Positions 7,213 through 36,519 are shown, counted from the stretch's first letter. The stretch: 64,000 nt of DNA from a virus (IMGVR_UViG_3300014969_000017:8795-72794), one strand, 5' to 3'. Numbers and translations are program-made. The notes: generated from the sequence alone by a model not told the origin.

Positions 7213-7560
7213 TCAATGCACCCCGGTGGTCCGCCGACGCCGCAGCGAATCCGGCGTGAACACGTAGCCGACCGACACCTGTGCCTGCGGGATCGTCCCG
7301 AAGTTCGACCGCACGTACTGGATCGAGCGAATCGCCAGCGTCCGGCTGCACCGGGCGCACTCCGACGTAGACACGAGCGTGAGGTGATGCAGATGCGTCG
7401 AGCCGCACGGGCAGTACGCGTCCACGGTCACGTCGAGCCGATCCACGAGCTTCTCGGTCGCCGGGGGTCGCTCCTCGGCCGCGTCCGCCCCCAGCACCTT
7501 CGCCAGAATCAGGAGCAGAGTTTTCACGGTACCGTGATGGGTCGTCGCCGTCGGCATCAA
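7213..7560 (-). CDS. hypothetical zinc-finger protein
   Basis: CPCG and CARC pairs; coupled to the MuF gene. Confidence 0.45.
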   Translation of the reverse strand: MMPTATTHHGTVKTLLLILAKVLGADAAEERPPATEKLVDRLDVTVDAYCPCGSTHLHHLTLVSTSECARCSRTLAIRSIQYVRSNFGTIPQAQVSVGYVFTPDSLRRRRTTGVH

Positions 7561-9044
7561 TCCTCGCTATCACTCTCGTCGCCGGTATCGGCCGTGTCGG
7601 CCTCGGGCGCGGCCTTCGTGCTCGGCTTACTCGGCTTGTCGCTCTCGTGGTCGCCCAGCGTGTCCTCGTCAATTTCGTCCACGTCGATTTCGCTGCCGTC
7701 GGAGAGGAGCGCGATCTGGACGCACCGGCAGGCATCCCCGCCGAGGCACTTCACGTAGGGTGGGCGCAGTTCTTCCTGCCGGTCGCTGCCCAGTTCCATC
7801 GACTCGCCATCGACCTCGGCGCACTCGTCGCACGTGCCCGTGTCCATGACCGCCGTCTGGATGACCGCGTCCACGATGGCCTCGCCCCCGGCCACCGCCT
7901 CGGCCTTGCTGATGAACTTGCCGTTTTCGTCCCGGTAGGCCAGTTCAAACTCCAGCGGGATGCGCGAGCGCCGGAGCGCCTGCATCGCCGTCGAGCGCCC
8001 CAGCGCGAACGCTTCGTTGGTCGCCCGGCTGGCGAACCGCTTCAGTAGCGACGGCGAGCGCCGATCCGTGAACGACTGGGTGAGCGCCTCGCGCCGGTCG
8101 GCCCCGATCCGTCGTCGCCGGAGCCGCGCCTCGTAGTCCTCGCGCAGACTGGTGAGCGCCCGTGCCCGGTCGGCCAGCACCGCCGCGCAGATGCCGTCCA
8201 CATCGACCGGGATCTCGCGCGTGCCCAGCCGCGCCGGTGCGCCCTGCCGCACCAGTTCCATCAGCACTTCACTCGCGCCGTAGGCGGCGAGGTCGTGCAG
8301 CGTGTCGCGCCAGCGGTCCTCGTCACAGCTAAGGAGCGTGTCGCGGCAGGCGTCGAGCCGCCGGGGAATCTCCGTCAGCGACAGCACCTTGGCCTCGAAC
8401 TTCATCGGCCGACGGCTCAGGCTCACGCCTTTGTAGAGCGTGCGCTTCCGTTTGCGCTTCGGGGGCTTCGACGGGATTGCGCCGACCATCGACGGGAACG
8501 ACACGTCACTGATGTCAGGCAGGTTGATAATCGCCAAGTCCGTGCGCCCGGCGATCAGGCCGTGCTTCTTCGCGTTGGCTCGGGACTCCTTCGTCATCGA
8601 CACGGGCACCCGCGTGACGCCCTTGTCGCGCAGGTTGGCCATGCGGTGACGACCGTTCGTGAACCCGACGCGGCCATCGGCATCGACATTGACTTCGGCC
8701 GCGTCCATCTGCGGCGAGGTCTTCAGGAAGTCCGCGATGCGCTCCAGTCGCCCGTGAATCGCGCCGGTCCCGGACGGGTCGATGTGGAAGCCGGTGTCCT
8801 GCTTCCATGCGGCGTCGAACTTCGCCATGTCCACGGGCACGAGCACGTCGCCTGCACGCTTCGCGCGAGCACTGTGCGTGACCTTGATCGACCGGCCCTC
8901 GACTTCGACGTGCTCGCCGCCGCTGTACTGGTTCCCTCGAAACGGATGGCCCTCGGTATCGCCCAGTGCGAACGGCTTCGCCTTGGAGACGATGACAAAG
9001 TCGCCCTCTTGCAACGCAAACCGGTCGGCGTGTACGTCCCTCAC
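7557..9044 (-). CDS. MuF-like head morphogenesis protein with N-terminal tag and ParB-like domain
   Basis: C-terminal AVMDTGTCDECAEVDG...PPYVKC...CRC (MuF Cys pattern); GFTNGRHR ParB/Srx-like motif; LGDTEGHPFRGNQY tag. Confidence 0.7.
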   Translation of the reverse strand: MRDVHADRFALQEGDFVIVSKAKPFALGDTEGHPFRGNQYSGGEHVEVEGRSIKVTHSARAKRAGDVLVPVDMAKFDAAWKQDTGFHIDPSGTGAIHGRLERIADFLKTSPQMDAAEVNVDADGRVGFTNGRHRMANLRDKGVTRVPVSMTKESRANAKKHGLIAGRTDLAIINLPDISDVSFPSMVGAIPSKPPKRKRKRTLYKGVSLSRRPMKFEAKVLSLTEIPRRLDACRDTLLSCDEDRWRDTLHDLAAYGASEVLMELVRQGAPARLGTREIPVDVDGICAAVLADRARALTSLREDYEARLRRRRIGADRREALTQSFTDRRSPSLLKRFASRATNEAFALGRSTAMQALRRSRIPLEFELAYRDENGKFISKAEAVAGGEAIVDAVIQTAVMDTGTCDECAEVDGESMELGSDRQEELRPPYVKCLGGDACRCVQIALLSDGSEIDVDEIDEDTLGDHESDKPSKPSTKAAPEADTADTGDESDSED

Positions 9045-9652
9045 GGCTGCACCTGTACGGTCATCCCGTTCGGACCTTTGCTGACGACCTTGTACTTGAG
9101 GCCACGCGGCAGAATGACTTCCTGCTGCCGGGCATACCGGTGGTCGGTGCCGATCTCCTCGTTGACGTTGATGTGACCCAGTCCCTTGGGCGCGAGCACG
9201 GTCAGTGTCGATTGCTTGGCCTTGTCCGCCACGCCGATGTCGTCCTGAATCTTCGCCAGCGCCGCCGGGTCGGCCGTCGTGGAGACGAACCCATCGTCCT
9301 GATACACGTCGCCCACGTCCAGCGAGGCCACCACGCTGGTGGGCACCGTGCGACTCAGCGTCGTGTCTTTCGGCAGGCGATTCCGCGTCATGTGGGTGTC
9401 CATCTCCAGCACGTCATTGCGATTCGCCCAGCGCGGTCCCTTCCCTGCCCGAAGATGCTCGTTGATGTAGCGAGCGCCGCCCAGCGTGTACTCGCTGACG
9501 GCTTTCTTGACGGCGTACGTTCCCCACCGCCAGCGTTGGCCCTCGGTATCGCTGTCGCCGCCCTCGCCCTCGGTCCACTGGTTGCCGCGAAAGGGATGCC
9601 CTTCGACATCGCCAAGGCTGAGGAGCGCGAGCTTCTCGCGGTAGGCGGTCAC
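9041..9652 (-). CDS. ADP-ribosyltransferase (VIP2/C3-like, R-STT-QxE)
   Basis: YINEHLR, LSR, GFVSTT, QQEVILPRG. Confidence 0.8.
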   Translation of the reverse strand: MTAYREKLALLSLGDVEGHPFRGNQWTEGEGGDSDTEGQRWRWGTYAVKKAVSEYTLGGARYINEHLRAGKGPRWANRNDVLEMDTHMTRNRLPKDTTLSRTVPTSVVASLDVGDVYQDDGFVSTTADPAALAKIQDDIGVADKAKQSTLTVLAPKGLGHINVNEEIGTDHRYARQQEVILPRGLKYKVVSKGPNGMTVQVQP

Positions 9653-10920
9653 ATGACCCCCAGTAGCCGCTGGCGATACGCCGACAGCGACTTCGGCTGC
9701 TCACCGGGCATCAGCACATACTCGTCGGGCAGGAGCGCCACCTTCTGCGTGGCGTAGGGGCGCTCGCCGGGCGGCAGGTTCTTGTGCGTACCATCGGCCT
9801 CGTAGTTCTGGCGACCAAAGTTGACCCACGAATTCTGGCCGCGTGTCTCCGTCGTTAGTGCTCGCCGCGCCGGGAACGTCAGCATCTGCGAGTGCGACCG
9901 CCACGCGTTCTCCTCGCCACGCGGCCCGAAGCCATACCCGCCTGCGGCGTGGCCGAAGTAGTCGTGGACGGCGCGGAACTTCTCGTTCAGGGACAAGCCG
10001 GTCTTGTCTTTCGACTTCGCCCCGATCAACGGGTGCGGCTCGCCACCCGTGTAGAAGTACATGTGCTTGTTGTTCTTCACGTCCGCAACCATCTCGGTCG
10101 AGGTCTGGTAGGGCTGACCGTCTTGCGTCCACGGCTCCAGCGTCATGCCGCTGGCAACGATGTGATCCCACTGCTGCTGAATCTCGGTGCTCAGCGCGGC
10201 GTAGGCTTCCTTGACCTTGGGGTTGTCTTGGTCGTCGGCTGGCAGCGCGTCGTACGCGTCCGCGATGTCACGGGCGCGTGGCTGGCTGACCTCGATGTAG
10301 GTGCTGTGATCGACCGGCGGGAGGCCGTGCGCCTCGTTGTAGCTATCCGCTACGCGGCTGGCGGCGGGGTCGGCTCCGGGTCTGGCGTGCGTCGTGGCGG
10401 CGGGGGCGGATACCGATCCTCCTCCTCCTCCGTCAGTTCCCGATCCTTGCGGTTGTCCGTCGGCGTGTCCGCCATCGCCTGCTCCTTCGCTGAATTTGCC
10501 GTCATCGGCACGGGGGTGCTGGCCCTCGTCCCACTCAAGGTGACGTGCATCTATACTATCATAGTTCGCGACCGCCAGTGTCAGGGCCAGCTTGTCCCGG
10601 TAACTCAGGTCCACCGGTGGCTGGTCCGACCCCTCGATGCGGTGCTTCAGCCAGCCGCAGAACGCCTTCGGGTCGTCCTTGTCCGGATTCTTCTCGACGC
10701 AGTCCGCGAAGTCTTCATAGTCCGCGAACGGCATGGTAATCACCTCGCCCACGGGAAGCGCCAGCGACCGCTCCTGCGTGACCGCGAGCATGATGACCTC
10801 GCCGTTGTCGAACTTTGCAATCGCTGTCGTGGCCTGATCGGGGTCCACCAGTTGATCGTTCAACAAGTAGGCGATGGTGGCCCAGCGGCCGTCGATCTTG
10901 TCGCGTTGCAGGCTCGGCAT
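9649..10920 (-). CDS. tagged multi-domain protein with putative metal-dependent domain
   Basis: Start trimmed to MPSLQR; WDEGQHPRADDGKF tag; FRAVHDYFGH...GEENAW...TETRGQNSW domain. Confidence 0.6.
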   Translation of the reverse strand: MPSLQRDKIDGRWATIAYLLNDQLVDPDQATTAIAKFDNGEVIMLAVTQERSLALPVGEVITMPFADYEDFADCVEKNPDKDDPKAFCGWLKHRIEGSDQPPVDLSYRDKLALTLAVANYDSIDARHLEWDEGQHPRADDGKFSEGAGDGGHADGQPQGSGTDGGGGGSVSAPAATTHARPGADPAASRVADSYNEAHGLPPVDHSTYIEVSQPRARDIADAYDALPADDQDNPKVKEAYAALSTEIQQQWDHIVASGMTLEPWTQDGQPYQTSTEMVADVKNNKHMYFYTGGEPHPLIGAKSKDKTGLSLNEKFRAVHDYFGHAAGGYGFGPRGEENAWRSHSQMLTFPARRALTTETRGQNSWVNFGRQNYEADGTHKNLPPGERPYATQKVALLPDEYVLMPGEQPKSLSAYRQRLLGVM

Positions 10921-13727
10921 CACTGCGTCTCCGGCGCATCCCAATCGAGCAGGAGCACCTGTTCCCGGTCCGTGACCTCGTCGCGCTCGATGGCCGACAA
11001 CGCGACCCGCTCGATGCCGTGCGTCTTGTCGTACGCGTGCATCTTCGCCAGTGCCCGGCGCGTCGGCATCTTGATGCGGTAGATCGGCACCTTCATCTCC
11101 GGGTGCTCCAGCGCCAGCGCGGCGGCTGCGGCCCAGTGGTGATGCCCGTCGAGCACGCGGTTCCCCTGCGACACCAAGACCGGCTTGAACGGCTTGCCCT
11201 TGCTTTCGAGCTTGTCCAGCTTCTCGGCGGCGCGGCGTGCGGAGATTTCTTTCTGCGAGGGCGCGAGCGTCAGCGGGTTCACCATCTCCCGCGTCACCGT
11301 GACACCGGCATCTCGCAGCGACTGGAGGAACGGCTCGCGATGCTCGGGCGGAATCTGCGGCATGTCCGCACGGGCGATGCCCAGTCCGTTGCCGCCGAAG
11401 ATGAGATGCCCGTTGACGTGCAGATCGGTAAGGTCCGCGTCCAGTCCCTGCTTGAGCGCCTTCTTCAGTAAGGCCCGGACGTGATGCGGATCGATGTTGG
11501 TCTTGTGGCCGTCCAGCAGCGAATGCAGCGCCTCGCCGGGCGAGTGCGAGTCCTCGAACTGACCGCGTGCATCGCGTGGGTGCTCGCCTTCGTCCCATTC
11601 CAGTTGCAGCGCCTTGAGCTTGTCGCGGTAGAGCGAGGTCGGCTTCTCCGGCACAGCGTCCGCAGGATCATCGGGAAAGTCCTCGCCCAGTAAATCGCGC
11701 CACAGGTCGCGGTCGGCACGCGTGCCGTCAGGCTCCTCGTAAAACATCTCGCGACTGCCCGGCCGTGGCGTCGGCGGCGGCGGGTCGGTCGGCGGAGGCG
11801 TCGGCGGGTCGTCGGCAAAGTTGATGGGTGACAATCCCAGTCGCTCGCGATTCGCGTTGCGCTCCTTCTGCTCGGCCAGCACGTCGGCGCGTTCGCGCTT
11901 GCGTCGTTCGCGTTGCGCGACCGTCTCCTTGGCCTTTGCCTTCCGCTCCGCCTTGACGATCCGTGCCGCCGCGTCCTGTCCCTCGTTCTGTTGCCGCATC
12001 CCGGCGACCTCGCGGACCCGCGTCTCCAGTTCCGTCGCCAGCCGTGCTCGCTCTTGGTAGTCCGGGTGCGTCGTGCGTGCCGCCGGAGCCAACTCCTCCA
12101 GACGCGTGCGCAGCGCCGCAATGCGCGTCTCGCTCGCCGCAATCGCCCGGTCGCGTGCCTCACGTCCAGCCCGGATGTCGGCGGCTGTCTCGGCATCAGC
12201 CTTCGCACGCTCGCGTGCGGCCGTGCGCTCGGCCTTCTGTCGCACCGCACGATCAATCGCTCGCTCGGGACGCGGAGCCGGTGTCTTCGTGGCCGAGAGG
12301 TAACTGTGCAACCGACTCATCGCCTCTTTGTCATCGAGGCGGATTTGCCCGTACCAGTCACTGCCCAGCAGCACAGCGGACCCGATCTTCTTACCCTCGC
12401 TCGTCGCGTCGGCAATCGCCCACAGTTGCGTGTCATCGCCCTCCGTCTCGGTGGCGATGTCCTCCAGCGAGAGCCGCTCCTCGTGCGTGATCATGCCCCG
12501 GCGCTCGGCGCGGTCGATCAGGCTATCGATGTCAGGTCCGCCATGCTCGTCGCTATCGATCTTGAACCCAAACTTCGCCCACGCGTAGCCGCCCACGTCG
12601 ATGTTCGCGTGGACCGTGACCTTGTCCACGCCCATCTTTTCGTACTCGTCAAAGCTCGCACGGAGGAGATCCTTCGCAAGGCCACCGCCCGTGTTCCCCG
12701 CTTGGAAGTAGCTGTGATCCACCACAAGCTCGCCGTTGTAGTCGCGCTTGAACTCGCGGGTGATCTGCGTGCCAGCGGATCCGGCGAACTTGATGCGCAC
12801 CACTTCTTCGCCGCTGTAATTGCTGTCGTCCTGCTCGGTGCGCCACTCATCGAACGAGTCGTTGGGTTCAAAGTCCTGCCCAACGCCGTCCTCCCACTCG
12901 CTGCGCATCTGGTTGATGGACTTCTGCACAGGACCGCCCGTCTGCATCAGCCGCTCGCGCAGGATGGCCTTCTCGTCCTCGGACCACGGAGCCGACGGGT
13001 CCAGCCCCTCCACGAGATCCTCGTACTCAATCTTCTCGGCGGTGTCGCCCGGCTGAAAGGCTTCGCCTTCCCCTAACGGCAGCGTCGGAATCTCGCGCGT
13101 ATCACCATACGGACCCGTGCGCCGGGCCTCCTCGGCCTCGGCCTTCATCGACTCCCAGAGCGTGTCGATCTCGGCCGCGCGATCCCGACGCTCGGCCACC
13201 CAGTCGTTCCGGGCTTCCCGGCGCGACTGCTCGACGTACTCGTCATAGCTCTCGCGGAGTTCCTCCTCGTCGGGACCGCCGCCCTCGGTCATGATCGTGA
13301 CCGCGAACTTCTCCTGATCGGCGTACTGCACCATCGACTCGGCCAAGTCACGCACGGCCGCTTCGGAGTTCAGCCCCAGCACGTTCGACACGACCGCGTC
13401 ATTGGCCTCGTCGTCTACCCGGACGATGTTCTTGCCCTTGACGCTTTTCTTGCTGTAGCTGCCAGTGCCCTCACCGTCGCCCTCGGCGGACCCGCCGACC
13501 TCGCCCGGTCGCCCGGCATGCCCGAAGTTCCCGGAACCGGGACCGCCCAGATGCACGGGCGTCGGCTGGTACGGTTCGACCGTGAAGGTGGCCCGACCCC
13601 CGTCATCGAACACCACTCGCGCCACCACGGCCTTCGGGTGACGCGGCTCGACCGGCTGGCGGTCGGCGTCGAGGAACACGACCACGCCGTGGCGTCCGTC
13701 AATCGTGATCGGTTCCGGTTGAATCAT
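10920..13727 (-). CDS. tagged polyprotein: GNAT-like domain, coiled coil, ParB-like domain
   Basis: Start trimmed to MIQPEP; GGGLAKDLL...VHANIDVGGYAWAKFGF (GNAT-like); VLDGHHHWAA (ParB/Srx); two tags. Confidence 0.65.
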   Translation of the reverse strand: MIQPEPITIDGRHGVVVFLDADRQPVEPRHPKAVVARVVFDDGGRATFTVEPYQPTPVHLGGPGSGNFGHAGRPGEVGGSAEGDGEGTGSYSKKSVKGKNIVRVDDEANDAVVSNVLGLNSEAAVRDLAESMVQYADQEKFAVTIMTEGGGPDEEELRESYDEYVEQSRREARNDWVAERRDRAAEIDTLWESMKAEAEEARRTGPYGDTREIPTLPLGEGEAFQPGDTAEKIEYEDLVEGLDPSAPWSEDEKAILRERLMQTGGPVQKSINQMRSEWEDGVGQDFEPNDSFDEWRTEQDDSNYSGEEVVRIKFAGSAGTQITREFKRDYNGELVVDHSYFQAGNTGGGLAKDLLRASFDEYEKMGVDKVTVHANIDVGGYAWAKFGFKIDSDEHGGPDIDSLIDRAERRGMITHEERLSLEDIATETEGDDTQLWAIADATSEGKKIGSAVLLGSDWYGQIRLDDKEAMSRLHSYLSATKTPAPRPERAIDRAVRQKAERTAARERAKADAETAADIRAGREARDRAIAASETRIAALRTRLEELAPAARTTHPDYQERARLATELETRVREVAGMRQQNEGQDAAARIVKAERKAKAKETVAQRERRKRERADVLAEQKERNANRERLGLSPINFADDPPTPPPTDPPPPTPRPGSREMFYEEPDGTRADRDLWRDLLGEDFPDDPADAVPEKPTSLYRDKLKALQLEWDEGEHPRDARGQFEDSHSPGEALHSLLDGHKTNIDPHHVRALLKKALKQGLDADLTDLHVNGHLIFGGNGLGIARADMPQIPPEHREPFLQSLRDAGVTVTREMVNPLTLAPSQKEISARRAAEKLDKLESKGKPFKPVLVSQGNRVLDGHHHWAAAAALALEHPEMKVPIYRIKMPTRRALAKMHAYDKTHGIERVALSAIERDEVTDREQVLLLDWDAPETQ

Positions 13728-15970
13728 GGTGTGTGCTGGGCCTTCACCTTCGGGTACGTCTTGCGCAGTTGCAGCGCGTAGTCCTGCCACGACTTCGCCG
13801 GGACGCCTTCCTTCCACGGGCCACGCGGAGCCTGCTCATGGTACGCCGCGACCTCGGCCAGTGTTTCCTCCTCCGCGCGTTTCCACGCGGGACCAATCGC
13901 GTTCGGGGGTCCATCCCGCATTGCTGTCTCGTACGCCTCCCAGTACAGGCGCGAGTAGGCGGTGAAGCCATCGTCTTTGCGCATCGCGTGGCCGCGCTCG
14001 CTCAGGCCACGGTCGTCCATGACCGTCTTGCCGTCCTCGGCCGTCTTCCACGTCCCGAGGTAGGGGTCGCCCAAGGGAGCCGTCCGCGCCATTGCGGCCG
14101 ACGCAGGCCACCGGGCTTCGATCTCCGCCATGCGGCTCTCGCGCGGGTAGCCGTTCCGACCGAACAGGCGGTCCCACTCCGGTGTCGCATCCTGCACGAC
14201 CTTCCCGCCATCCCCGAAGACCCGCTGCCCCTGAGACGCCAGCTTGCTGATTTCATCGTGCTCCTTCGCCGCCACGATGCGCACCGTGTCGTGCTGCGCG
14301 TGCATGATCTCGTGCGACACCAGCCCCTGCGTGAACTCCGGGTTCCGCGCGAGGTTGCGGGAGTTGACCTCGATGCGCCCGGTGCCCGGATCGTAGTGTC
14401 CGCCCTCGTTCAACTGGCGACCAGCCACAGTGAAGCCGCGTGGCTCGATGTCCACTACGTCGATGCGCCCAGCGTCGAACCCTTGCCGCGTGGAGACAGT
14501 GTTCGTGATGATCTGCACCGTCTCCTGCCGCACTACCGGCGCGTGCGCTTCCACCGCCAGTCGGGCGGCGTGCTCCGCCTGCATCGCCTCTTGTCGCGCG
14601 TCGAACGACGTGTAATACGTCGGGTCTTGGTGGATCTCGTAGTCCCACCCGTGCTCGGCCCGGATCGCTTTCACCACCGCGAGGTGCGAGGCGAGCACGT
14701 CGGCATACCGCAGGGTCGCCTCCTTGAGTGCCGCCTGTCGCTTCTCCATCTCGCGCTGCGCGGGGCGTGCTGTCTCGCCTTCGCCATCAGTCCACTGGTT
14801 TCCACGGAAGGGATGTCCCTCCACGTCGCCCAGCAGGATGAGGCGTCGGCCGTCGGCCGACATGGTGATCTTTGGGTTCGCGGGGTCGAACGTCGTGTTG
14901 CCCGTGGCGCTCTTGATCTGCGTCGGCGCGAAGACGACGAAGTGCGTCGTGTCCGGGTTCATCCCCTTCATCGACTGACCGATCCGCCGCTGCGAACCGA
15001 ACTTGGTGTCTACCTCGCGGTCGATGACGCCGTCGAACCCGGCTCGCTCCAGCGCCGCCCGGAACACTTCCTTGTTGACCAAGGCACCGGTGTCGCTCTC
15101 GATGTAGCTGGCCTCCTCCGTGTCGTTCCACGCCTTGACCAGTTCGGAGGCCGTGATCATGTCGCGGTCCATGATCTTCTCGGTGAACTTCTCGACCGCC
15201 TCGTCGCCGCCGGAGTGCTGACTGGCTTCGTCGCGCAGTGCCGCCAGAAAATCTGGCAGCGTGCCTTCCTGCCCGACGATGTCACTATCGGAGTCGTTCG
15301 GATCGTCGTACACGTACTCCGAAGTCAGGACGGTTTCCCTGTGCGACGAGGTGCCGTTGGCATCGCCCACGACGAAGGGCTGCTGCATCGACACGTACGC
15401 GGGATAGATCGCGACGGACTTACCAGCCAGCGCCGCACGCGCCTGCTTCAGTGCGTCGTCGTGAGACAGATCCTCGTTCTCGCTTTGTAGGCGATCCACT
15501 TCGTGCTCGATGCGAGCCGTCAGGTCCGGACCTTCCCCGGCGTAGTTTTCCCCAGCGTCTTCCGGCTCGCTGGTGAAGTACACGCCAGCGCCCCAGTCCG
15601 ACTCGGGATTCAGTCCCTCGTCTCCGGCCTTCTTGAACTCCTCGATGTCGTGCGTCGTGCCGTGATAGACGACCAGCGGCTGGCCCTCGTCATCTACGAC
15701 CTTCGACTCTTTGAACCACGCCTTGAACCGGGGCGACTCGGTGCGGTCCCGGCCACTTCCGCCACCCTCGCCATCCGTCCACTGATTGCCCCTGAACGGG
15801 TGGCCTTCGACATCGCCCAGCAGGAGCGCGAGCCGCTCGCGGTAGGTCAGCGCCTTCTTGTCGGCGTCGTCCTTCGGCTTCGGTTTCGGGGGGACCGGCT
15901 TGATAATCCGGAACTCGCCCCATGTGAAGCGATCCGCGTCCGGCGGCACACTGGGCGGCGTGGCAGGCAT
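13724..15970 (-). CDS. tagged polyprotein: polyvalent-type ADP-ribosyltransferase plus zincin metallopeptidase
   Basis: FKAWFKESKVVD...PLVVYHGT...GVYFT...GFDGVI...VVFAPTQIKSATGN; second domain GGHYDP...SHEIMH (HExxH). Confidence 0.75.
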   Translation of the reverse strand: MPATPPSVPPDADRFTWGEFRIIKPVPPKPKPKDDADKKALTYRERLALLLGDVEGHPFRGNQWTDGEGGGSGRDRTESPRFKAWFKESKVVDDEGQPLVVYHGTTHDIEEFKKAGDEGLNPESDWGAGVYFTSEPEDAGENYAGEGPDLTARIEHEVDRLQSENEDLSHDDALKQARAALAGKSVAIYPAYVSMQQPFVVGDANGTSSHRETVLTSEYVYDDPNDSDSDIVGQEGTLPDFLAALRDEASQHSGGDEAVEKFTEKIMDRDMITASELVKAWNDTEEASYIESDTGALVNKEVFRAALERAGFDGVIDREVDTKFGSQRRIGQSMKGMNPDTTHFVVFAPTQIKSATGNTTFDPANPKITMSADGRRLILLGDVEGHPFRGNQWTDGEGETARPAQREMEKRQAALKEATLRYADVLASHLAVVKAIRAEHGWDYEIHQDPTYYTSFDARQEAMQAEHAARLAVEAHAPVVRQETVQIITNTVSTRQGFDAGRIDVVDIEPRGFTVAGRQLNEGGHYDPGTGRIEVNSRNLARNPEFTQGLVSHEIMHAQHDTVRIVAAKEHDEISKLASQGQRVFGDGGKVVQDATPEWDRLFGRNGYPRESRMAEIEARWPASAAMARTAPLGDPYLGTWKTAEDGKTVMDDRGLSERGHAMRKDDGFTAYSRLYWEAYETAMRDGPPNAIGPAWKRAEEETLAEVAAYHEQAPRGPWKEGVPAKSWQDYALQLRKTYPKVKAQHTP

Positions 15971-16200
15971 CAGTACAACTTTCTTGGGTAGTCCGGCGTG
16001 GGCGATACCCACGTGCCGCCCCAGACATTCAGGATGTGCTGCGCAAGACGCGCATCCTCAGTCGGCGCATAGTGCCCGTTCTCCGGCGGCTGCATCGACG
16101 GGGCGTTCAGCAACTCCGCGAACACCGCGTTCTCCGGCACCGACACGACGCCATCGCTGACCGTGACCGTTTCCCCGGTCGAGAGCTTGAGGGTGATCAT
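15970..16200 (-). CDS. small hypothetical protein (possible inhibitor/immunity partner)
   Basis: 76 aa ORF translationally coupled between two effector genes. Confidence 0.45.
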   Translation of the reverse strand: MITLKLSTGETVTVSDGVVSVPENAVFAELLNAPSMQPPENGHYAPTEDARLAQHILNVWGGTWVSPTPDYPRKLY

Positions 16201-17429
16201 GGCTTACTCCGATACTTGCCGTGCATCACGTCGAAGATGAACTTGAAATGCTCCGGCCGACTTTTCGAGAAGCCGATGGGGTCCATGATGTACGCCTCCA
16301 CGCCCGTCGAAACCATCTCCGTCGCAATGTCGTCCGGGTAGAGTTTGGCCGAGTACGGGTCCGGGAAGTTGCCACGCAGCGCGTGCTCATGGGCATCGAG
16401 GCCACCGTGAACCGTGTTCAGCGCATAGACCTCTCGCGGTTTCGTCGCCAGCGATTCTCGCAACTCCACTGCCGCCTTCAGCACCGCCGAGTGGTTCATC
16501 TCGATGTGGTGCGCGATCTCGTGATAGACCGTGCGGTCCAGTTCGCGTGCGTTGCCGATATTGATACCACCCAGCGTGGCGTTCGCACGCCCGTCTTTGG
16601 CTCGCCCCAGCCGCAAGGTCGCCGGGATCGAGAACGTCCCATCGGGATTCGTCACCAGCGGCGTCTTGTCTCCAAAGATTTCGCGAAACTTTTCGATCTG
16701 GTCGCCGGGGTATTTGTGTGGGACGAAGGCACCGGACCCGTCGTACTGCCGAAAGGTCGCCAGCGCCCGATTCGCGCCAGCCTCCACCGCCCCGTGCAAC
16801 TCCTGCGTGGACGTGAACGTCAAAGCCGACCGCTCCTCGTGCGGCACCTTCAGTAACTCTTTGGCTTGGGCGTTCGCCTCCGCACGCTGCTTCTGCGCCT
16901 CGTCGTACGCGGCGTGGAACGTGGCCGAGAGCGCCTCCATCTTCTTGTAGGAGTCGAGCTTCTTCGCCGCCGCGCCGTCGGCTTTCAGGGGCCGCTTGCG
17001 CTCGGTGATGTCCTTGCGCCACGCGTCAGACGCGGCCTTGATGTCGTTGCGCATGACATTCAGGGCGTCCTCGGTGTCTTCGCCCTTCTTGACCAGCGCG
17101 ACGAACCGGTGATGCAGCGCCTCGATGGGATCGCTGTCGCCCTCAGCCGATCCGCCGACTTCGCCCGGTCGCCCCGCGTGACCGAAGTTGCCGCTGCCTG
17201 CTCCGCCCAGCAGGTACGCCAGCTTCTCGCGATAGGTCAGGTGATGCGGGTCAGGTGGCGGCTCCGGCTCCGGCGCGGGTGACTCGGCTACGGTGAAGAA
17301 TGCAGTGCCGCCATCATCGAACACGACCTTCGCCATCGTCGCCTTCGCCGCTGGGACCGGGTGCCAGTCCGCATCGAGATAGACGACGCTACCGGATCGA
17401 CCGTCGATGGTGATGGACTCGGGCGTCAT
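16197..17429 (-). CDS. tagged zincin-like metallopeptidase
   Basis: Start trimmed to MTPESI (ATGA overlap with the upstream stop); VYHEIAHHIE...TEMVSTGVE. Confidence 0.7.
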   Translation of the reverse strand: MTPESITIDGRSGSVVYLDADWHPVPAAKATMAKVVFDDGGTAFFTVAESPAPEPEPPPDPHHLTYREKLAYLLGGAGSGNFGHAGRPGEVGGSAEGDSDPIEALHHRFVALVKKGEDTEDALNVMRNDIKAASDAWRKDITERKRPLKADGAAAKKLDSYKKMEALSATFHAAYDEAQKQRAEANAQAKELLKVPHEERSALTFTSTQELHGAVEAGANRALATFRQYDGSGAFVPHKYPGDQIEKFREIFGDKTPLVTNPDGTFSIPATLRLGRAKDGRANATLGGINIGNARELDRTVYHEIAHHIEMNHSAVLKAAVELRESLATKPREVYALNTVHGGLDAHEHALRGNFPDPYSAKLYPDDIATEMVSTGVEAYIMDPIGFSKSRPEHFKFIFDVMHGKYRSKP

Positions 17430-24423: not shown

Positions 24424-24424
24424 G

Positions 24425-24889: not shown

Positions 24890-24907
24890 GGCGCGATCAT
24901 ACGGCCG

Positions 24908-25255
24908 CTACTCCTGCTTCGGGCAGGCGCTGAGAAAGTCCCAGAGGTCCACCACGTCCCGCGAGACGCGCGGACTCCATGCGACCTTCTCCGTGTACTG
25001 CTGCAACAGGTCGAAGTCCTCCTGCGCCAGCACCACCGTCTGCGTCTCGCCGGTCAGCTTGCGATCCGGCTCGTTCCCCGTGGGCGAGGCCGTCGGCTCG
25101 CTGATGCGATCAAACGCGTCCTGCAACCGCGCCTCTTTGCGAATCGTGGCCGGGGAGCGGTCGCCCTTCCCGTCCCCACCGGTCGCCAGCGCGGTCCAGA
25201 TCAACGTGAACCGCGTTGCCGCCTTCGGCCCCTCGAACACCACCGCTCGTGTCAT
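24908..25255 (-). CDS. hypothetical protein (possible fibre chaperone)
   Basis: 115 aa, GAGG RBS, follows the FN3 protein. Confidence 0.5.
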   Translation of the reverse strand: MTRAVVFEGPKAATRFTLIWTALATGGDGKGDRSPATIRKEARLQDAFDRISEPTASPTGNEPDRKLTGETQTVVLAQEDFDLLQQYTEKVAWSPRVSRDVVDLWDFLSACPKQE

Positions 25256-25261
25256 GCGTCC

Positions 25262-27685: not shown

Positions 27686-27688
27686 GAC

Positions 27689-31975: not shown

Positions 31976-32018
31976 CGGTCCCGCTTCCGTTTCGACTGTG
32001 CCGCCGCCGCCGCGACGG

Positions 32019-32483
32019 TTACTTCGCGAACGGGAACGACTTCTTGACTTGCGCCGGACCAGCCACTTCGTCGTCAGGTGGTTCGGCGGCTTCTTCGGCT
32101 GGCGTCTCCGTTGCCTCGTGCGCGGCACCTTCTTCGCTGGTGTCCGTCGTCACGTCTGGCTCGACGCCGACCGTCTGACCGTCGTCCGTCTCGTACTCGA
32201 ACTTCAGCTTCTTCTTCCCGTGAACGGTCGAGACTTTGACCTTGCGCATGTCGAGCGCGAACGTGGACGCGGGGCACGTGCGTGCCTTGTCCAATCGTCG
32301 CGCGAGTTCACGGCGATCTCCGCCGCTCACGCCGTGCGCATCGCGCCACGGCCCCATGCGTTCTGCGGCTTGCGGATCCATTGGTGGCGAGCACCGGTCT
32401 TCGCACAGGATGACGGACATGCCGCCGTCGAGCGTCAACCAGAGTGCGCCATCCTCGCGAGTACCAGCGACACGCATACTCAT
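32019..32483 (-). CDS. hypothetical protein sharing its N-terminal domain with 32490-33566
   Basis: GTR.DG..W.TLDGGM.V.L..DRCSPP.DP present in both. Confidence 0.6.
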
Positions 32484-32489
32484 CTCCTT

Positions 32490-33566
32490 CTATTTCTTCA
32501 CGCCAGCGGGAGGGATGCCGAGCTTGCGCGTCCACTCCGTGGAGAGGTGGTAAATCTGCGACATCGGCATATCGACCACCGTGACTTTCATCGCAGTGTC
32601 GTTGTTCAGGTTCCCGTCTTCGGCGTCACGCCCGACCGCAGCGGCCCACGTGTGGTGTCCGTCGATCACGTAGCCATCGCGCGATACCCAGATCCGGTTC
32701 TTCTCCGACTTCGGATCGAAGCCAGAGTTGAGCATCATCCCCGCGACCTTCGTGCCTTCCATCTCGGCTTGGCTGGCCTTCAGCTTCCGCGAGAGCATGG
32801 TGTCGGGGTGCGTTTTGACGCCGGACGCTTGGAGATGCTTGAGGAACTGTTGCGCCGCGTTCACTTCACCGTTCGCATCGCGCGGGAGCTTGTCCGCCTC
32901 GCTGCCGGGGATCGGATTCTTCGACTTGAACTGCGGCATCTCGATGCGCGGAATGCCGTGCGGGAACTTCTCCGTCTTGAGCGTTTCCTGACAGAAGATG
33001 CTGGCCCCCTTCACCGTGACCGTGCAGGGATCCCAGTTCTTCGCGTCCTTCCCCGCCGCCTGCGCCGCCAGTGCTTTCTCGCCCAGCAGCCGGAGCACGG
33101 TGTGAACTTGCCGCGTGTCCTTCAGTTCGACGTTCTCGCCCTTCAGGATGAGATCGACGCCTTCCTCGGCCGTCTCGACCTGATGCACCGGCTTGCTGCG
33201 CTGCTGACGAATCGCCTCCTGCATCGACCGCTGGACTTCGTTCAACGACGGATGGTAATCGTCACCATCCTTCTCGGACCCGCCGCCAGTGCCATCGCTG
33301 TACTGATTGCCGCGAAACGGGTGGCCCTCCACGTCTCCGAGGTGGAACGTGCGCAGCGACACCGTGCGTGCGCGTTCGAGTCGGCGCACGAGCACGCGCT
33401 GCTCGTCTCCGTTCCGCACGACCGGCGCGAACGTCCACGGCCCCAGTGATTCAAGGAGGTGCGGATCCACCGGCGGCGAACAGCGGTCGGCGCGAAGCAG
33501 CACGGCCATCCCGCCGTCGAGCGTGACCCACTGGGTACCGTCTGCGCGTGTGCCTACGATTCGCAT
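32490..33566 (-). CDS. tagged ParB/Srx-like protein
   Basis: LGDVEGHPFRGNQY tag; LKASQAE...VSRDGYVIDGHHTWAA; paralogous to the C-terminal domain of 10920-13727. Confidence 0.65.
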   Translation of the reverse strand: MRIVGTRADGTQWVTLDGGMAVLLRADRCSPPVDPHLLESLGPWTFAPVVRNGDEQRVLVRRLERARTVSLRTFHLGDVEGHPFRGNQYSDGTGGGSEKDGDDYHPSLNEVQRSMQEAIRQQRSKPVHQVETAEEGVDLILKGENVELKDTRQVHTVLRLLGEKALAAQAAGKDAKNWDPCTVTVKGASIFCQETLKTEKFPHGIPRIEMPQFKSKNPIPGSEADKLPRDANGEVNAAQQFLKHLQASGVKTHPDTMLSRKLKASQAEMEGTKVAGMMLNSGFDPKSEKNRIWVSRDGYVIDGHHTWAAAVGRDAEDGNLNNDTAMKVTVVDMPMSQIYHLSTEWTRKLGIPPAGVKK

Positions 33567-33572
33567 CGTCGT

Positions 33573-35477
33573 TTACCGATGGCGGCGCGTGGACGTGATC
33601 GCCGCCTGCACCGCGCGTGCGCTCATGCGCTCAGCGGCTGGCGTGTGCGGGTCAGCGGCGATAGCCCCGTACGCGGAATGGAGGTCGTCAAGGTCTTTCG
33701 GCTTCAGCTTGTGGAACGTGTCGATGGTCAGCTTCTTCCGGTTGGCCTTCGGCCCGAGGATGCGCGTGATCGTCGCATCGCCTTCCGCCGCCGTCAGGAA
33801 CTGGCCGCGCTCGTTGCGCGGATGCTGGCCTTCGTCCCAATCGAGCGCGAACGCCATCTCGTCGTCCGTCATGTGCATCGGCGGCATCCGCGCGTGCGGC
33901 GGCGGTGCGGCCCCACGTGGTGCGCCGGGATGCTTCGGCGTCGGCTCGCCGCCCTGTTGGTCGTCTGGGTTGCCGCCCTCGGCCTGTTGCTGCTGGTCCG
34001 GTTCCTCGCCCGGCCCCGGTCGATTCGGGTTCGTCGCATCACCCGCGTTCGTGCCATCGCCCTGCTGCGGCACAGCCGACGCGTCACCCGGTTGCGCGGC
34101 CTTCTCGGACTTCGCCTCGCGCGAGCGCGTGGGCGCGAGCGGCGGCAACCCGAGCATCTTGCGCAGCACCGCTTCGTCGTCGTCCTGCGGCGTGATGAGC
34201 GTGCCCTGCAACTGGGCGAGCACGCTGACCAGCGCGGTGAGATCGAGTTGTTCGAGGTCGAGGCAGACCGGGTCCGGATACTTCCGGCGCGACATATCGA
34301 AGTTGAAGTCGCACAGCGGCTTGATCACGCTGTTCTTCAGATCGCCGTTGATGCCGTTCGCAATCCCGTCGAGCGACGAGATGAACATATCGGTGATGCG
34401 CGAGCCGTAGCCGGAGCCGACGTGCGTGCCCACTTGGTTGTTCTGCCCGGAGGCCAGAAACATCGCGAGGACGTTCCGCGCCATCTGCGAATCGTTATGC
34501 TCGATCCATGAGATGCCGAACTGCCCGGCCGTGCCCTGTCCGCTGTTCCCGCCCTCGATACGAAACGCGGTGTGCTCCGGCGTCACCATGTACGACTTCT
34601 CGTTCGCACGCACCGACCGCAAAATCTCCCGGATCAACCCGAGGTCGCCGGTCGAAAGCGTGTTGCCCTCCTCCAGCGCGATGATGGGAATGCCGACGCC
34701 CCAGCGGTCGAGGCCGACGCCCATGATGCGGTACGCCTCGTCCTTGAAGAACCAGTTGCGATAGATATTCCGCAGCAGCGACATCCCGTGGTAGTTGTCG
34801 CCCTCGCGGTCGAGCACGAACACCGCGCAGTACTCGGCGGGGATGGTCAGGTACTGGTAGCTGACGGAGCCACCATAGATCGCCGCCCGGTTATTGCCCC
34901 GTGAGTCGCGGCTCGCGTAGGGCACGGGCGCGTACTGCACGATGTGTTCGAGCTTGCCCTCCCGATTGACGTGCCATTCGCGCAGCGTCTTCGGCAGGCG
35001 TGGGGCCAGTCGCTTGAAGCGATAGAAGCCCTGCTCGTCCACCTTCCAGATTTTCTCCAGCACCGAGACGCCGAACTCCAACTGCATCAGGATGTGGCGC
35101 AGCGTGAAGTCCCACGAGTCGTCCATCGAGTCGTCCTCGAACAACGCCCCGTTGCAGAACTCTGCGATCTGCTTGTCTACCGGATCGGAACTGGCCGCGT
35201 TGACTTGCCACGTCGCCCCGCGCAGCGGGAGCTTGATGACTTGCAGCATGGCGCGGACGTTGGCGTCCGTGCGGCGCATCTTGTCGTACTGCGCAACGGC
35301 CTTCTGCCAGTCATCGAAGTCGGGGTTGTAATCCTCCCGACGAATGGTGCCACCGTAGTTCTCGGTGCCGGAGACGCCGTGCTCCTGCGCGGCCACGCCA
35401 CGAATCGGAGCCGACGGCACGCCCTGTTGACTGAGGTCGCGGCGGAAGATCGGTGGAATGAGGTCCGTCAGTTTCAT
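33573..35477 (-). CDS. portal protein (Mu gp29/DUF935-like)
   Basis: YDKMRRTD, FGVSVLEKIW, GMSLLR, IKPLCDFNF motifs; first gene of the head block. Confidence 0.85.
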   Translation of the reverse strand: MKLTDLIPPIFRRDLSQQGVPSAPIRGVAAQEHGVSGTENYGGTIRREDYNPDFDDWQKAVAQYDKMRRTDANVRAMLQVIKLPLRGATWQVNAASSDPVDKQIAEFCNGALFEDDSMDDSWDFTLRHILMQLEFGVSVLEKIWKVDEQGFYRFKRLAPRLPKTLREWHVNREGKLEHIVQYAPVPYASRDSRGNNRAAIYGGSVSYQYLTIPAEYCAVFVLDREGDNYHGMSLLRNIYRNWFFKDEAYRIMGVGLDRWGVGIPIIALEEGNTLSTGDLGLIREILRSVRANEKSYMVTPEHTAFRIEGGNSGQGTAGQFGISWIEHNDSQMARNVLAMFLASGQNNQVGTHVGSGYGSRITDMFISSLDGIANGINGDLKNSVIKPLCDFNFDMSRRKYPDPVCLDLEQLDLTALVSVLAQLQGTLITPQDDDEAVLRKMLGLPPLAPTRSREAKSEKAAQPGDASAVPQQGDGTNAGDATNPNRPGPGEEPDQQQQAEGGNPDDQQGGEPTPKHPGAPRGAAPPPHARMPPMHMTDDEMAFALDWDEGQHPRNERGQFLTAAEGDATITRILGPKANRKKLTIDTFHKLKPKDLDDLHSAYGAIAADPHTPAAERMSARAVQAAITSTRRHR

Positions 35478-36247: not shown

Positions 36248-36519
36248 CACACGCCGAGCCGAGCGCCGCCGGTGCCGTCGTCTACGACCCGGACGCCGGG
36301 CACGAACGCCAGCGCCTGCGCGACCGCACTGGTGCCGTTGAAGTAGACCTGTCGCGTCGTGACTTGCACGAGAACGCCGACGGCCGGGATGTCGATGGCC
36401 TTCGTCTCGCGCACCCAGCCCTCGGACTCGCTGGCCTCTTGGCACAGCATCTTCCACTGGGTCGGATCCCCAACCGTGGTGTAGTCAAGGACGCCGGGGA
36501 CCGGGACGGTGTCAGGCAC
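36247..36519 (-). CDS. conserved hypothetical phage protein
   Basis: 90 aa, coupled to the methyltransferase. Confidence 0.5.
   Translation of the reverse strand: MPDTVPVPGVLDYTTVGDPTQWKMLCQEASESEGWVRETKAIDIPAVGVLVQVTTRQVYFNGTSAVAQALAFVPGVRVVDDGTGGARLGV

Follow-up and report, generated by a model that had tools for sequence, protein, structure and literature searches.

In an uncultured tailed phage with a Mu-type head module (completeness about 60% by CheckV), short peptides recur in front of one protein module after another in the genes lying between the Portal_Mu portal and the Mu-like_Pro protease, which raises the question of what these peptides are and what they might do there. We analysed a stretch of 64,000 nucleotides (hereafter the window) of this record, an IMG/VR virus contig in which the large terminase gene TerL lies at 57555-59084.

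The tagged genes between portal and protease

Seventeen cargo modules are encoded by nine genes, from the portal gene to the MuF-like gene g8, all on the minus strand and including an ART-PolyVal gene. They are listed below with the head genes that follow them (a slash marks the junction between a tag and the residues preceding it).

33573..35477, minus strand: portal protein, 634 residues (Pfam Portal_Mu, E 2.2e-35; PHROG portal), with a Pro/Gly/Gln-rich linker, then the junction FAL/DWDEGQHPR at residues 545/546, then an 89-residue C-terminal module
32490..33566, minus strand: g1, 76-residue leader, FHL/GDVEGH (tag A), 282-residue phrog_2859 module
17426..24100, minus strand: g2, polyvalent protein of 2224 residues, 8 modules with 7 tags between them (B, A, A, A, C, A, B)
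16197..17483, minus strand: g3, leader domain, YREKL helix, YLL/GGAGSG (tag B), 336-residue module with HEIAHH (zincin-like, weak Pfam match)
13724..16012, minus strand: g4, leader, YRERL helix, LLL/GD (tag A), ART-PolyVal domain (PF18760, E 7.9e-19), ILL/GD (tag A), 368-residue module with HEIMH
10920..13817, minus strand: g5, leader domain (matches in only 3 proteins), VHL/GG (tag B), 649-residue module with a coiled-coil stretch inside, YRDKL helix, LQL/EWDEG (tag C), 226-residue phrog_2859 module
9649..10935, minus strand: g6, 133-residue leader with a YRDKL helix, RHL/EWDEG (tag C), 295-residue phrog_3170 module
9041..9652, minus strand: g7, 13-residue leader with a YREKL helix, LSL/GD (tag A), ADP-ribosyltransferase (ART) domain (PF03496, E 1.3e-9)
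7557..9044, minus strand: g8, 27-residue leader, FAL/GD (tag A), PFIN/ParB-like stretch (Pfam PFIN, E 0.0013), MuF-like C-terminal part
5054..6922, minus strand: Mu-like head maturation protease (Mu-like_Pro, E 4.6e-30; PHROG head maturation protease, E 5e-34), in the N-terminal ~170 residues, fused to a long Pro-rich, helical, scaffold-like tail
3392..4318, minus strand: major capsid protein of the Phage_cap_E type (PF03864, E 4.4e-10)

The Portal_Mu and Mu-like_Pro matches identify a Mu-type head maturation module. Gene g8, located between the cargo and the protease as MuF is in Mu, scores below the cut-offs of Phage_Mu_F (PF04233; E 0.045, 14.9 bits, cut-off 29.6) and TIGR01641 (E 0.033, 14.6 bits, cut-off 39.65), and PF04233 clusters make up 19 of its 30 feature hits in the Atlas (score 0.95).

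Module 0 of g2 contains Pterin_4a, and among its later modules are a weak NERD-like match, two without assignment, a weak HD match, an ART and a zincin-like module with HEVSH. Over the whole array, Pterin_4a, ART-PolyVal and ADPrib_exo_Tox (twice) score above the Pfam cut-offs; NERD/NOV_C nuclease, HD, Zn_peptidase_2 (E 6e-4), Peptidase_M10 (E 0.019), PFIN and Phage_Mu_F fall below them, and the three HExxH motifs (g2 C-terminus, g3 and g4) were read directly from the sequence. The initial annotation had nearly every tag preceding a different domain, which is true in part: several distinct domains are present, but there are three ART modules, three HExxH modules and two of phrog_2859, no Pfam or PHROG family matches five of the 17 tagged modules, and a GNAT domain finds no support (E 0.28). 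The phrog_2859 module of g1 has no Pfam match, and was called ParB-like by the initial annotation only. At least two effector-type domains share one polypeptide in g2 (Pterin_4a and ADPrib_exo_Tox over the cut-off, besides weak matches to HD, NERD and zincin) and in g4 (ART-PolyVal and an HExxH module).

The whole window was scanned in six frames with regular expressions for tag A (G[DE]x[EPDT]GHxFxGNQ[WYF], reading GDxxGHxFxGNQW/Y in this window), tag B (G[PA]GSGNFGHxGRPGxxGGS) and tag C ([DE]WDExxHPR), which returned the following copies.

8925-8963, 9575-9613, 14792-14830, 15779-15817, 19793-19831, minus strand: tag A, first five of 9 copies
21083-21121, 21566-21604, 22421-22459, 33300-33338, minus strand: tag A, last four copies
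13488-13544, 17148-17204, 18566-18622, 23219-23275, minus strand: tag B (GG[PA]GSGNFGHAGRPGEVGGS), 4 copies
10510-10536, 11574-11600, 20498-20524, 33816-33842, minus strand: tag C ((D/E)WDEGxHPRxxxGxF), core of 4 copies

These counts and positions, together with seven copies of a YR[DEQ][KR]L helix, agree exactly with those first noted, and Leu immediately precedes the tag in all 17 cases, as had been claimed. Five of the seven helices are just upstream of a tag, as they were said usually to be; one lies ~17 residues upstream (g6), and one is at the end of the g6 protein (YRQRLLGVM), whose ORF has no tag after it, the g6 stop codon overlapping the GTG start of g7. All tags and helices are in frame within long ORFs on the minus strand; the rest of the window and the record's remaining 8.8 kb have none. 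Each tag is followed by a Gly-rich linker. Back-translated patterns A, B and C matched 9, 4 and 4 times, where 100 dinucleotide shuffles predict 0.00, 0.04 and 0.00. Selection acts on the tag peptides, since their synonymous sites are scrambled: the majority base reaches a fraction of 0.57-0.67 at third codon positions versus 0.84-0.95 at positions 1 and 2, and the copies use different Ser and Arg codon families.

Spread of the tags among phages

No family was found for five tag segments in Pfam (E<=10) or for three in NCBIfam (E<=0.1), profile searches of the PDB gave chance matches only (E>=0.7), and tag strings of six to nine residues were absent from the literature searched. The DNA patterns of tags A, B and C occur in at least 183, 157 and 118 IMG/VR stretches, respectively. 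Among the matches listed, the unforced part of tag A (G[DE]xxGH) was present in 141 of 158 unique contexts and the full 20-residue tag B in 164 of 165; hybrids of A and B exist. A tag B profile (E<=1e-3) matched 5,359 representative proteins (clusters), with up to 9-10 copies per protein. Twenty-three of the 47 proteins examined have a Pfam family, namely ART-PolyVal (9), ADPrib_exo_Tox (7), Phage_Mu_F (3), 2_5_RNA_ligase2 (3), Zeta_toxin (2) and prohead protease (1), and conjugation families were not found among these 23. A tblastn search of 50,697 cultured phage records (E<=1), whose low-complexity filter may mask the tags, returned no tag-bearing phage.

The tags are near-invariant among phages whose portal, capsid and protease families differ and whose hosts are very diverse, an archaeal MAG included. 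They are linked to head genes: portal, MuF or protease genes accompany them in 19 of 27 contigs, and in some contigs tags are fused straight behind portal and protease domains. The restriction to head modules that the initial annotation had set as a test holds in this majority and fails in two contigs (G019 and G020), where a tagged ART gene is located among Rad52/YqaJ recombination genes, away from head genes; in all, 8 of the 27 had no clear head gene in the stretch examined. Many tagged genes encode a single module behind a leader of 13-60 residues, and in five of the 141 tag A contexts among the matches listed the tag directly follows Met, which in three cases has a stop codon shortly before it; a P22-type coat protein is encoded on one contig of this kind, whose examined 20 kb showed no protease family. 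As far as homologous cargo indicates, the tags are interchangeable, in that relatives of the g7 ART carry tag A or C-like variants, and the phrog_2859 domain occurs behind A, C or B.

The residue preceding the tags and the proposed processing of the cargo

The residue in front of the tag is lineage-specific. Of 156 tags from 25 contigs, 151 have the residue most common in their contig, whereas 2,000 permutations averaged 90.8 and never exceeded 100; the observed count overstates independence because contigs and tags share descent. The residue does not depend on which of the three tags comes next, and from the contigs compared it appears to follow the neighbouring head-maturation gene. First, Lys precedes the tags in all five such contigs with a protease family found, which is Peptidase_S78_2 or S78, the HK97-type proteases (G006, G009, P0146, L520 and L516). 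Second, (R/K)-x-(L/A) goes with DUF2213 in four of four contigs (G001, G004, G005 and L567). Third, Leu goes with Mu-like_Pro in three of three (the window, L491 and L499), all from related phages. Asp, Asn and the initiator Met were also found. Against this stand a DUF2213 phage with Asp instead of (R/K)-x-(L/A) (L531), and a contig with Phe before the tag, Glu one residue further upstream and only a sub-threshold S78 match (G011). These comparisons support the view that Leu is an element separate from the tag.

Phages of the (R/K)-x-(L/A) lineage have this motif also in the capsid protein at residues 55-58 (FRAA/G, FRAL/A), just ahead of the start of the capsid family model, and right behind the DUF2213 domain (MRML/GG), a spot at which two relatives have a tag. 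To our knowledge DUF2213 is not known as a protease, and its profile shows no similarity to that of Mu-like_Pro (hhalign probability 0.07). Judged on these features, the junctions look like processing sites. In the window no N-terminal extension is apparent in the capsid protein, as read without alignment, and the protease-scaffold protein is tagless, so that the Leu site has no internal control here.

From these lines of evidence we propose, as the probable reading if only just, that each junction has two parts, a lineage-specific cut site and a universal header kept on the cargo, and that the modules are packaged and injected. Part one would be a short amphipathic helix or leader with a hydrophobic-x-Leu end, where the Mu-like prohead protease would cut inside the procapsid, much as protease I is thought to trim the C-terminus of the Mu portal. 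Part two, presumably universal among phages, would be one of the three interchangeable headers plus its Gly-rich linker, and once cut would form the new N-terminus of the module. Once freed, the modules would be carried in the head and reach the host together with the DNA, a route already predicted for effectors of the polyvalent and MuF-linked kinds. The header could serve as a signal for packaging or retention, provide a handle for ejection, or be read inside the host.

It is unlikely, in our view, that the polyproteins are instead packaged and active uncut, like the N4 virion RNA polymerase, the tags being inter-domain linear motifs (partner-binding sites or hinges) and the pre-tag residue the mere end of a lineage-specific linker helix. 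That reading can call on the full-length transfer of the N4 enzyme and of the plasmid proteins ArdC and TraC1, described in the part considered of Iyer et al. 2017 (PMC5512222), and as to cleavage the tagged proteins are known from sequence alone. It also agrees with tags falling in segments without confident predicted structure, as in the AlphaFold2 model of g7, where the leader, tag and linker (residues 1-41) have pLDDT <50 and the fold begins near residue 45. Against it, the upstream motif recurs at the tagless sites in the capsid protein and behind DUF2213, and the short leaders of many single-module genes and the tags at Met1 are more easily explained by a header at a free N-terminus than by a hinge.

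It is quite unlikely that zincin-like metallopeptidase modules within the cargo do the cutting, either ahead of packaging or once injected, with the prohead protease uninvolved. Three HExxH modules with weak zincin matches are at hand in this phage, and processing of this kind had already been raised in the covered part of Iyer et al. 2017 (PMC5512222), but 12 of 24 tag-bearing contigs, including the 12-tag contigs G007 and G009, have no HExxH in their tagged ORFs (a count of HExxH as such in the examined stretches, leaving aside HExxxH variants and peptidases beyond them), and the pre-tag residue follows the head-maturation gene.

We regard as very unlikely that the tags work only after delivery, as an activation, refolding or localisation signal for a conserved host factor, unrelated to capsid loading. 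The two tagged ART genes outside head modules would suit such a signal, as would the near-invariance of the tags, which across such varied phages and hosts calls for a very conserved reader. The strong association with portal, MuF and protease genes and the fusion of tags right behind portal and protease domains speak against it, and a role of this kind would in any case be compatible with the cleavage step proposed here. A role of the tags as recombination junctions in the DNA, at which effector cassettes would be shuffled, much as conserved motifs border the variable ends of polymorphic toxins, is strongly disfavoured and scarcely credible: homologous cargo does carry different tags, cargo sets vary between close relatives and 12 of 14 Mu-like_Pro loci are tagless within 10 kb, but in thousands of clusters it is the peptide that is conserved, and the scrambled synonymous positions and differing Ser and Arg codon families mean that the copies share no long DNA identity.

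Returning to the two-part junction, the same peptides also stand at the start of similar modules in thousands of unrelated phages, so that the tags resemble a label, as yet undescribed, for protein cargo of the virus head. A broader extension, which we hold only tentatively and which may well fail, is that many tailed-phage lineages, with bacterial and possibly archaeal hosts, share one cargo code, in which three interchangeable headers (GDxxGHxFxGNQW, GGxGSGNFGHxGRPGxxGGS and W(D/N)ExxHPRxxxGxF) would label whatever enzyme module they precede as cargo and be read by a conserved receptor for loading or ejection, and the residues before the header would be retuned to each head protease. If this extension is true, any protein given a leader, cut site and header could be directed into a phage head and from there into a target cell.

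Comparison with known systems

The initial annotation had proposed tagged polyproteins that are cut after Leu and injected, a proposal that finds comparative support in part, for head-module polyvalent proteins, processing-like junctions and the separate Leu, and that loses its analogy to T4 capsid targeting. Phage-type polyvalent proteins and portal- or MuF-fused effectors were described by Iyer, Burroughs, Anand, de Souza and Aravind (2017, PMC5512222), who, in the parts of the article covered, predicted that polyvalent proteins are packaged and injected and proposed their proteolytic processing. The likeness lies in multi-effector polypeptides beside portal, terminase and MuF genes, with ART-PolyVal and candidate zincin-like modules; the present phage has both several effector domains per polypeptide and a (pro)phage portal-terminase packaging system. 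The difference is that those parts assign processing to MPTase modules and not to the prohead protease. The covered parts of its main text mention no linker, glycine, low-complexity segment, GNQ or junction motif. The MuF polymorphic toxins of temperate phages (Jamet et al. 2017, PMC5576092, in the part considered) likewise have toxin domains on or beside MuF in the head module, and the Asp-type contigs (G016, G017 and L568), with Zeta toxin, glutamine deamidase and CdiA_C-like ends, look like this group; linkers, cleavage, junctions, boundaries and a conserved motif go unmentioned in the covered part of that main text.

In Mu, where the same portal and protease families are found, the virion portal gp29 lacks its last 124 residues according to the cryo-EM passage considered (PMC11915804), whose authors credit protease I (gp32), and the portal junction here is 89 residues from the end; Mu has neither tags nor a cargo array between portal and MuF. 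The Leu preference is not established by this parallel, since the passage does not give the position of the cut.

In T4, as set out in the part covered of PMC9958956, non-essential enzymes including an ADP-ribosyltransferase are likewise loaded into the prohead, trimmed and injected with the DNA, gp21 stripping N-terminal peptides from the internal proteins and the ART Alt. The T4 targeting peptide, however, is upstream of the cut, is removed, and is confined to T4 relatives, whereas the present tags are downstream of the presumed cut, behind a conserved residue that is Leu here, would be retained, are common to phage lineages that are not related and lie within polyproteins too; the protease families differ as well. 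The tags were therefore rejected as T4-type capsid-targeting sequences, and the lineage-specific upstream leaders make the better T4 analogue. Encapsulin cargo-loading peptides, which are short, conserved and carried on a flexible Gly-rich linker, direct diverse enzymes into an HK97-fold shell compartment; they are C-terminal and bind the shell protein, whereas the present tags are N-terminal to each module.

The tagged genes and their setting

The record that contains the window is linear (72,794 bases; G+C 63-71%) and about 60% complete according to CheckV, and its minus strand carries nearly all genes. Based on Pfam and PHROGs, the order of transcription is terminase, about 22 kb of small genes, portal, tagged genes, protease-scaffold and capsid. 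The main features, in window coordinates, are as follows.

57555-59084 (-): large terminase (Pfam and PHROGs)
35543-57500 (-): terminase-portal gap, about 22 kb, in which small genes predominate
53107-54234 (-): 375-aa protein with a terminal PEP-CTERM sorting motif, unusual in a phage gene
52516-53079 (-): HNH endonuclease
39976-40812 (-): PAPS-reductase-domain protein
35543-36457 (-): methyltransferase
33573-35477 (-): Mu-type portal (Portal_Mu, E 2.2e-35)
27689-32128 (-): collagen-repeat protein, 1479 aa, untagged
25262-27685 (-): fn3-repeat protein, 807 aa, with a Gly-rich tail at its end, untagged
5054-6922 (-): fusion of a Mu-like head protease and a scaffold-like tail (Mu-like_Pro, E 4.6e-30)
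3392-4318 (-): capsid protein of the Phage_cap_E type (Pfam)

The tagged cargo genes g1 to g8, which lie between the portal (itself tagged) and the protease, are interrupted at 24.1-32.5 kb by the collagen-like gene, the fn3 gene and five small ORFs. These ORFs (114-237 aa, within 24097-32483, minus strand, between g1 and g2) are untagged, and four of them are compact; the ORF at 27099-27812, nested in another frame, is probably spurious. The collagen and fn3 genes, fibre-like and placed amid the head module, may encode head fibres or be a misplaced tail-fibre block. There is weak evidence that g8, the last tagged gene, is MuF-like; the portal, MuF, protease, capsid order would therefore be that of Mu, with about 25 kb inserted in the window. 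A homologue of the window protease, named at NCBI as a phage protease of a Vicinamibacterales MAG, hints at an Acidobacteriota host.

A six-frame scan reproduced exactly the counts and positions proposed by the initial annotation for the three tags, hereafter also headers (nine copies of A, GDxxGHxFxGNQ(W/Y); four of B, GGxGSGNFGHxGRPGxxGGS; four of C, (D/E)WDEGxHPRxxxGxF), and for the seven YR(D/E/Q)(K/R)L helices, all in frame on the minus strand. The numbers expected by chance, from dinucleotide shuffles and back-translated patterns, are 0.00, 0.04 and 0.00 for A, B and C. Divided at their tags, the nine proteins fall into 17 tagged modules (89-649 residues each) and nine upstream leaders of 13-545 residues; the two largest leaders are the body of the portal and, in g2, a Pterin_4a part of 274 residues. 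Leu does precede every tag, as had been claimed (17/17), and, in 11 of the 13 junctions of types A and B, a hydrophobic residue stands two positions upstream of it. The domain labels were borne out in part: Pterin_4a, ART-PolyVal (ART, ADP-ribosyltransferase) and ADPrib_exo_Tox (twice) score above the cut-off, the nuclease, HD, zincin, PFIN and MuF matches fall below it, and the GNAT label found no support in domain searches. For five of the tagged modules, neither Pfam nor PHROGs gave a family. A pterin-4a-carbinolamine dehydratase (PCD/DCoH-like) domain opens g2, a cargo protein of 2224 aa (23279-24100, minus strand; residues 162-238, E 1.3e-16), and its family also occurs in P0113, another tag B protein, from elsewhere; such a recurrent type of cargo is unexpected.

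Tags mark where modules begin. Tag A directly follows Met in 5 of 141 contexts, in three of which a stop codon lies no more than six codons upstream, and one contig (G014) carries four such Met1-tag genes together with a P22-type coat protein and a MuF gene, and no protease family within the 20 kb examined. On other contigs, single-module genes have leaders of about 19-60 residues before the junction; that of g7 has 13. In an AlphaFold2 model of g7, weak in that its alignment has six sequences, residues 1-41 (leader helix, tag and Gly linker) have a pLDDT <50 and a confident ART fold begins at about residue 45. As to the boundary between g6 and g7, g6 ends (9649-9680, minus strand) with the junction-type helix YRQRLLGVM and a TGA stop that overlaps the GTG start of g7 (GTGA), and g7 opens with a second helix, YREKLALLSL, followed by tag A. 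This boundary looks like a polyprotein junction divided between two translationally coupled genes.

Conservation and distribution of the headers

Selection maintains the tag peptides themselves. When the DNA of the copies is aligned, the most frequent base accounts for a fraction of 0.57 (A), 0.61 (B) or 0.67 (C) at third codon positions, and of 0.84-0.95 at first and second positions, and the tags use both AGC and TCN codons for Ser and both CGN and AGG codons for Arg. With third positions so scrambled and codon families so mixed, we reject the possibility that the copies are recent DNA duplicates or recombination scars.

Using back-translated DNA patterns, we found tag A in at least 183 IMG/VR stretches, tag B in at least 157 and tag C in at least 118. 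Among the matches listed, the G[DE]xxGH part of tag A, unforced by the pattern, occurs in 141 of 158 unique contexts, the full 20-residue tag B in 164 of 165, and 109 of 113 tag C contexts are open upstream. A hybrid tag, GG(P/E)GSGAQxGHxFxGNQ(W/Y), consists of the first half of B followed by the second half of A, which makes the two tags variants of a single motif. With a profile of tag B we retrieved 5,359 representative proteins among 1.84 billion at E<=1e-3 (138 at E<=1e-30); a single protein can carry as many as 9-10 copies. Pfam families were found in 23 of 47 scanned tag B proteins, every family being of the phage polyvalent kind: ART-PolyVal (9), ADPrib_exo_Tox (7), Phage_Mu_F (3), 2_5_RNA_ligase2 (3), Zeta_toxin (2) and Peptidase_S78_2 (1), with kinase, NUDIX, Pterin_4a, GNAT and ParB_N as further families; no conjugation family occurred among these 47.

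No Pfam or NCBIfam model covers any tag segment, and the three tag alignments, used as profiles against the PDB, found no chain covering a tag. The tag strings searched are absent from the searchable literature (subscription journals lie outside it), where topical searches equally returned no such description; linkers and junction motifs go unmentioned in the main texts of Iyer et al. 2017 (PMC5512222) and Jamet et al. 2017 (PMC5576092). In cultured phages (F116, Caulobacter Rauchvirus phages, Mx1), only the ART part of g4 finds relatives, and the two loci inspected, F116 and Jess A, carry no tags. The 47-aa tag segments gave no tblastn match at E<=1 in cultured phages, a search whose low-complexity filter may hide tags; with the four-tag protein P0035 as the tblastn query against plasmids and phages, only a cargo domain was matched and the tags were not.

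Tags are rare in cellular genomes. A one-genome-per-species scan with the tag B pattern yielded 107 unique contexts, namely 28 full tags, 3 variants and 76 chance matches, in agreement with an arithmetic estimate of about 70 by chance. The genuine ones include MAGs or genomes of Clostridia, Lachnospiraceae, Dehalococcoidia, Omnitrophota, Terriglobus and Elusimicrobiales, and an archaeal MAG of Methanomassiliicoccales. Several proviruses of IMG isolate genomes carry tags, as does a Desulfosporosinus prophage. Full or variant tag B copies also lie on three contigs (L573, L584, L559) binned to Methanomassiliicoccales, Methanospirillum and Nitrosotalea; the last of these contigs carries a terminase and a head-tail connector as well, and the short fragments L573 and L584 have no head gene by Pfam. 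The headers may thus extend to archaeal tailed viruses, binning errors being possible.

The expected restriction of the tags to head modules held for most of the 27 distinct tag-bearing contigs that we examined with Pfam: 19 of them carry a portal, terminase, MuF, prohead protease or capsid family with the tags. Eight have no clear head gene in the stretch examined, including L573, L584, G007, G011 (weak portal match only), G015, G019 and G020, and the last two depart from the expectation, with one tagged DRAT-like ART among Rad52, YqaJ and Gp157 genes, a setting other than a head module. Fusions place tags immediately after the portal domain in the window and in seven other contigs (G001, G004, G010, G017, G018, L531, L568), and they lie behind a protease or DUF2213 domain in G004, L520, L567 and P0146, and ahead of it in G001. 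The cargo array is optional: only 2 of 14 IMG/VR loci with a relative of the Mu-like protease have tags within 10 kb.

The residue before the header and the maturation genes

Among the IMG/VR matches listed, tag A is preceded by K (95), L (18), A (8), F (6), M (5) and a few others, and tag B by K (60), D (30), N (25), L (20), A (8), H (6), E (6) and a few others. Within 25 contigs, the pre-tag residue is that of the contig majority for 151 of 156 A, B and hybrid tags, as compared with 90.8 on average and at most 100 in 2,000 permutations, a uniformity that overstates independence because contigs and copies are related by descent. The residue is independent of the type of tag, since the window Leu precedes A, B and C alike, and another lineage has hydrophobic-(R/K)-x-(L/A) before both A and B. 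It is a lineage-specific element, separate from the tag. Outside g5, whose leader domain resembles that of g3 by eye, this domain was found in just three proteins, and Leu stands before the tag in each; leaders are therefore lineage-specific and tags universal. In G018, an 80-kb phage (L494/L495; 100% complete by CheckV), Asn precedes all eleven tag B copies, three in modules of a 1587-aa portal and eight in four other proteins. Asn-Gly bonds are chemically labile, so that self-cleavage is possible there.

On the following lines of evidence, the pre-tag residue tracks the neighbouring maturation gene. First, contigs of the Lys type have an HK97-like protease in all five cases where any protease family was found, either Peptidase_S78_2 (G006, G009 and the protein P0146, which itself has three K↓GG junctions, the arrow marking the presumed cut) or Peptidase_S78 (L520, L516); the HK97 protease cuts its capsid protein after Lys. 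Second, all four contigs of the (R/K)-x-(L/A) type (G001, G004, G005, L567) have a DUF2213 protein between the MuF and capsid genes. Third, the Leu type goes with Mu-like_Pro in the window, its near-identical relative L491 and L499, where the protease is 70% identical and Leu precedes 6-7 of 8 tags. Fourth, Peptidase_S78_2 (PF14550) has no match in five contigs of the Asp or Asn type. A search of ten contigs for PF04586 gave a single sub-threshold match. There are two exceptions: L531 has Asp before the tag yet a strong DUF2213 match, and G011 has Phe, with Glu one residue further upstream, and a sub-threshold S78 match only. DUF2213 has no peptidase role known to us; its profile shows no similarity to Mu-like_Pro (hhalign) and found nothing useful in the PDB.

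The best evidence that the upstream motif may be a maturation-protease site comes from non-tag sites of the (R/K)-x-(L/A) lineage, which is not that of the window phage. At capsid residues 55-58, the motif reads YRFRAA↓GPLQDK (G001, G005) or EFRAL↓APLQDK (G004), at the expected start of the capsid family model, whose profile position 52 falls on residue 107. In DUF2213 proteins, HRAAMRML↓GGSMELL immediately follows the DUF2213 domain; the equivalent spot reads GIKVL↓GG and then tag A in G004, and FKDL↓GG and then a degenerate tag B in L567. The capsid propeptide and the protease-scaffold boundary are usual places of cleavage.

Two further elements were noticed. At the end of the Mu-like protease domain, residues 150-166 of the window protease (AAAITNHPFLEGMxALTL), nearly invariant in 27 homologues, contain hydrophobic-x-Leu and then Glu-Gly, resembling the tag junctions; they could be either a self-cleavage site or simply an element of the fold. 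Intein/HINT domains immediately follow the MuF domain in several MuF or cargo polyproteins (L210:1437-5198, L520:7325-10018, L567:1751-4486, P0010), where they form a second element, self-splicing or self-cleaving.

A proposed two-part junction and its relation to known systems

We propose that the junction has two parts, an upstream cut site and a downstream header. The helix or leader followed by hydrophobic-x-Leu would most likely be the cut site of the Mu-like prohead protease, and the header would stay on the released module. That the modules are capsid cargo of the polyvalent kind is quite probable; with Mu itself as the precedent, the prohead protease would cut the junctions after Leu, a step for which we see about an even chance, leaning slightly towards yes; a part for the headers in loading or ejection is put forward tentatively. 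The non-tag sites, the Met1 tags and the identical headers found beside different protease families all suggest a header that is dispensable for cutting. Zincin modules could themselves be the cutting enzyme, a weaker candidate since HExxH is absent from all tagged ORFs in 12 of 24 contigs. An all-against-all BLAST of the ORFs of 22 contigs, with tags masked, gave no shared candidate receptor for the headers beyond the chained polyvalent/MuF cluster and portals. Homologous cargo bears differing tags, and what is new relative to the searchable literature is the junction grammar: three universal, interchangeable headers with a retunable cut site ahead.

The effector proteins that a phage packages are its opening move against the defences of the host, and to our knowledge little is known, outside T4, P1 and N4, of how such proteins come to be selected for packaging, are processed and are set free. 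Together with a lineage-specific cut site, a universal header would provide a rule, based on sequence, by which injected cargo could be recognised in uncultured phages, many of whose modules lack a known family. If true, the proposal would also give a direct experimental handle (N-terminomics, tag-reporter fusions) and a possible route to load chosen proteins into phage heads, and would make prohead protease specificity readable from genome sequence alone.

The cargo system belongs with the phage polyvalent proteins and the portal- or MuF-linked effectors. In Mu, the last 124 residues of the portal are missing from the virion, a loss that the authors attribute to protease I (PMC11915804); the junction of the window portal lies 89 residues from its end. 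The window cargo would work in much the same mode as the internal proteins and Alt of T4.
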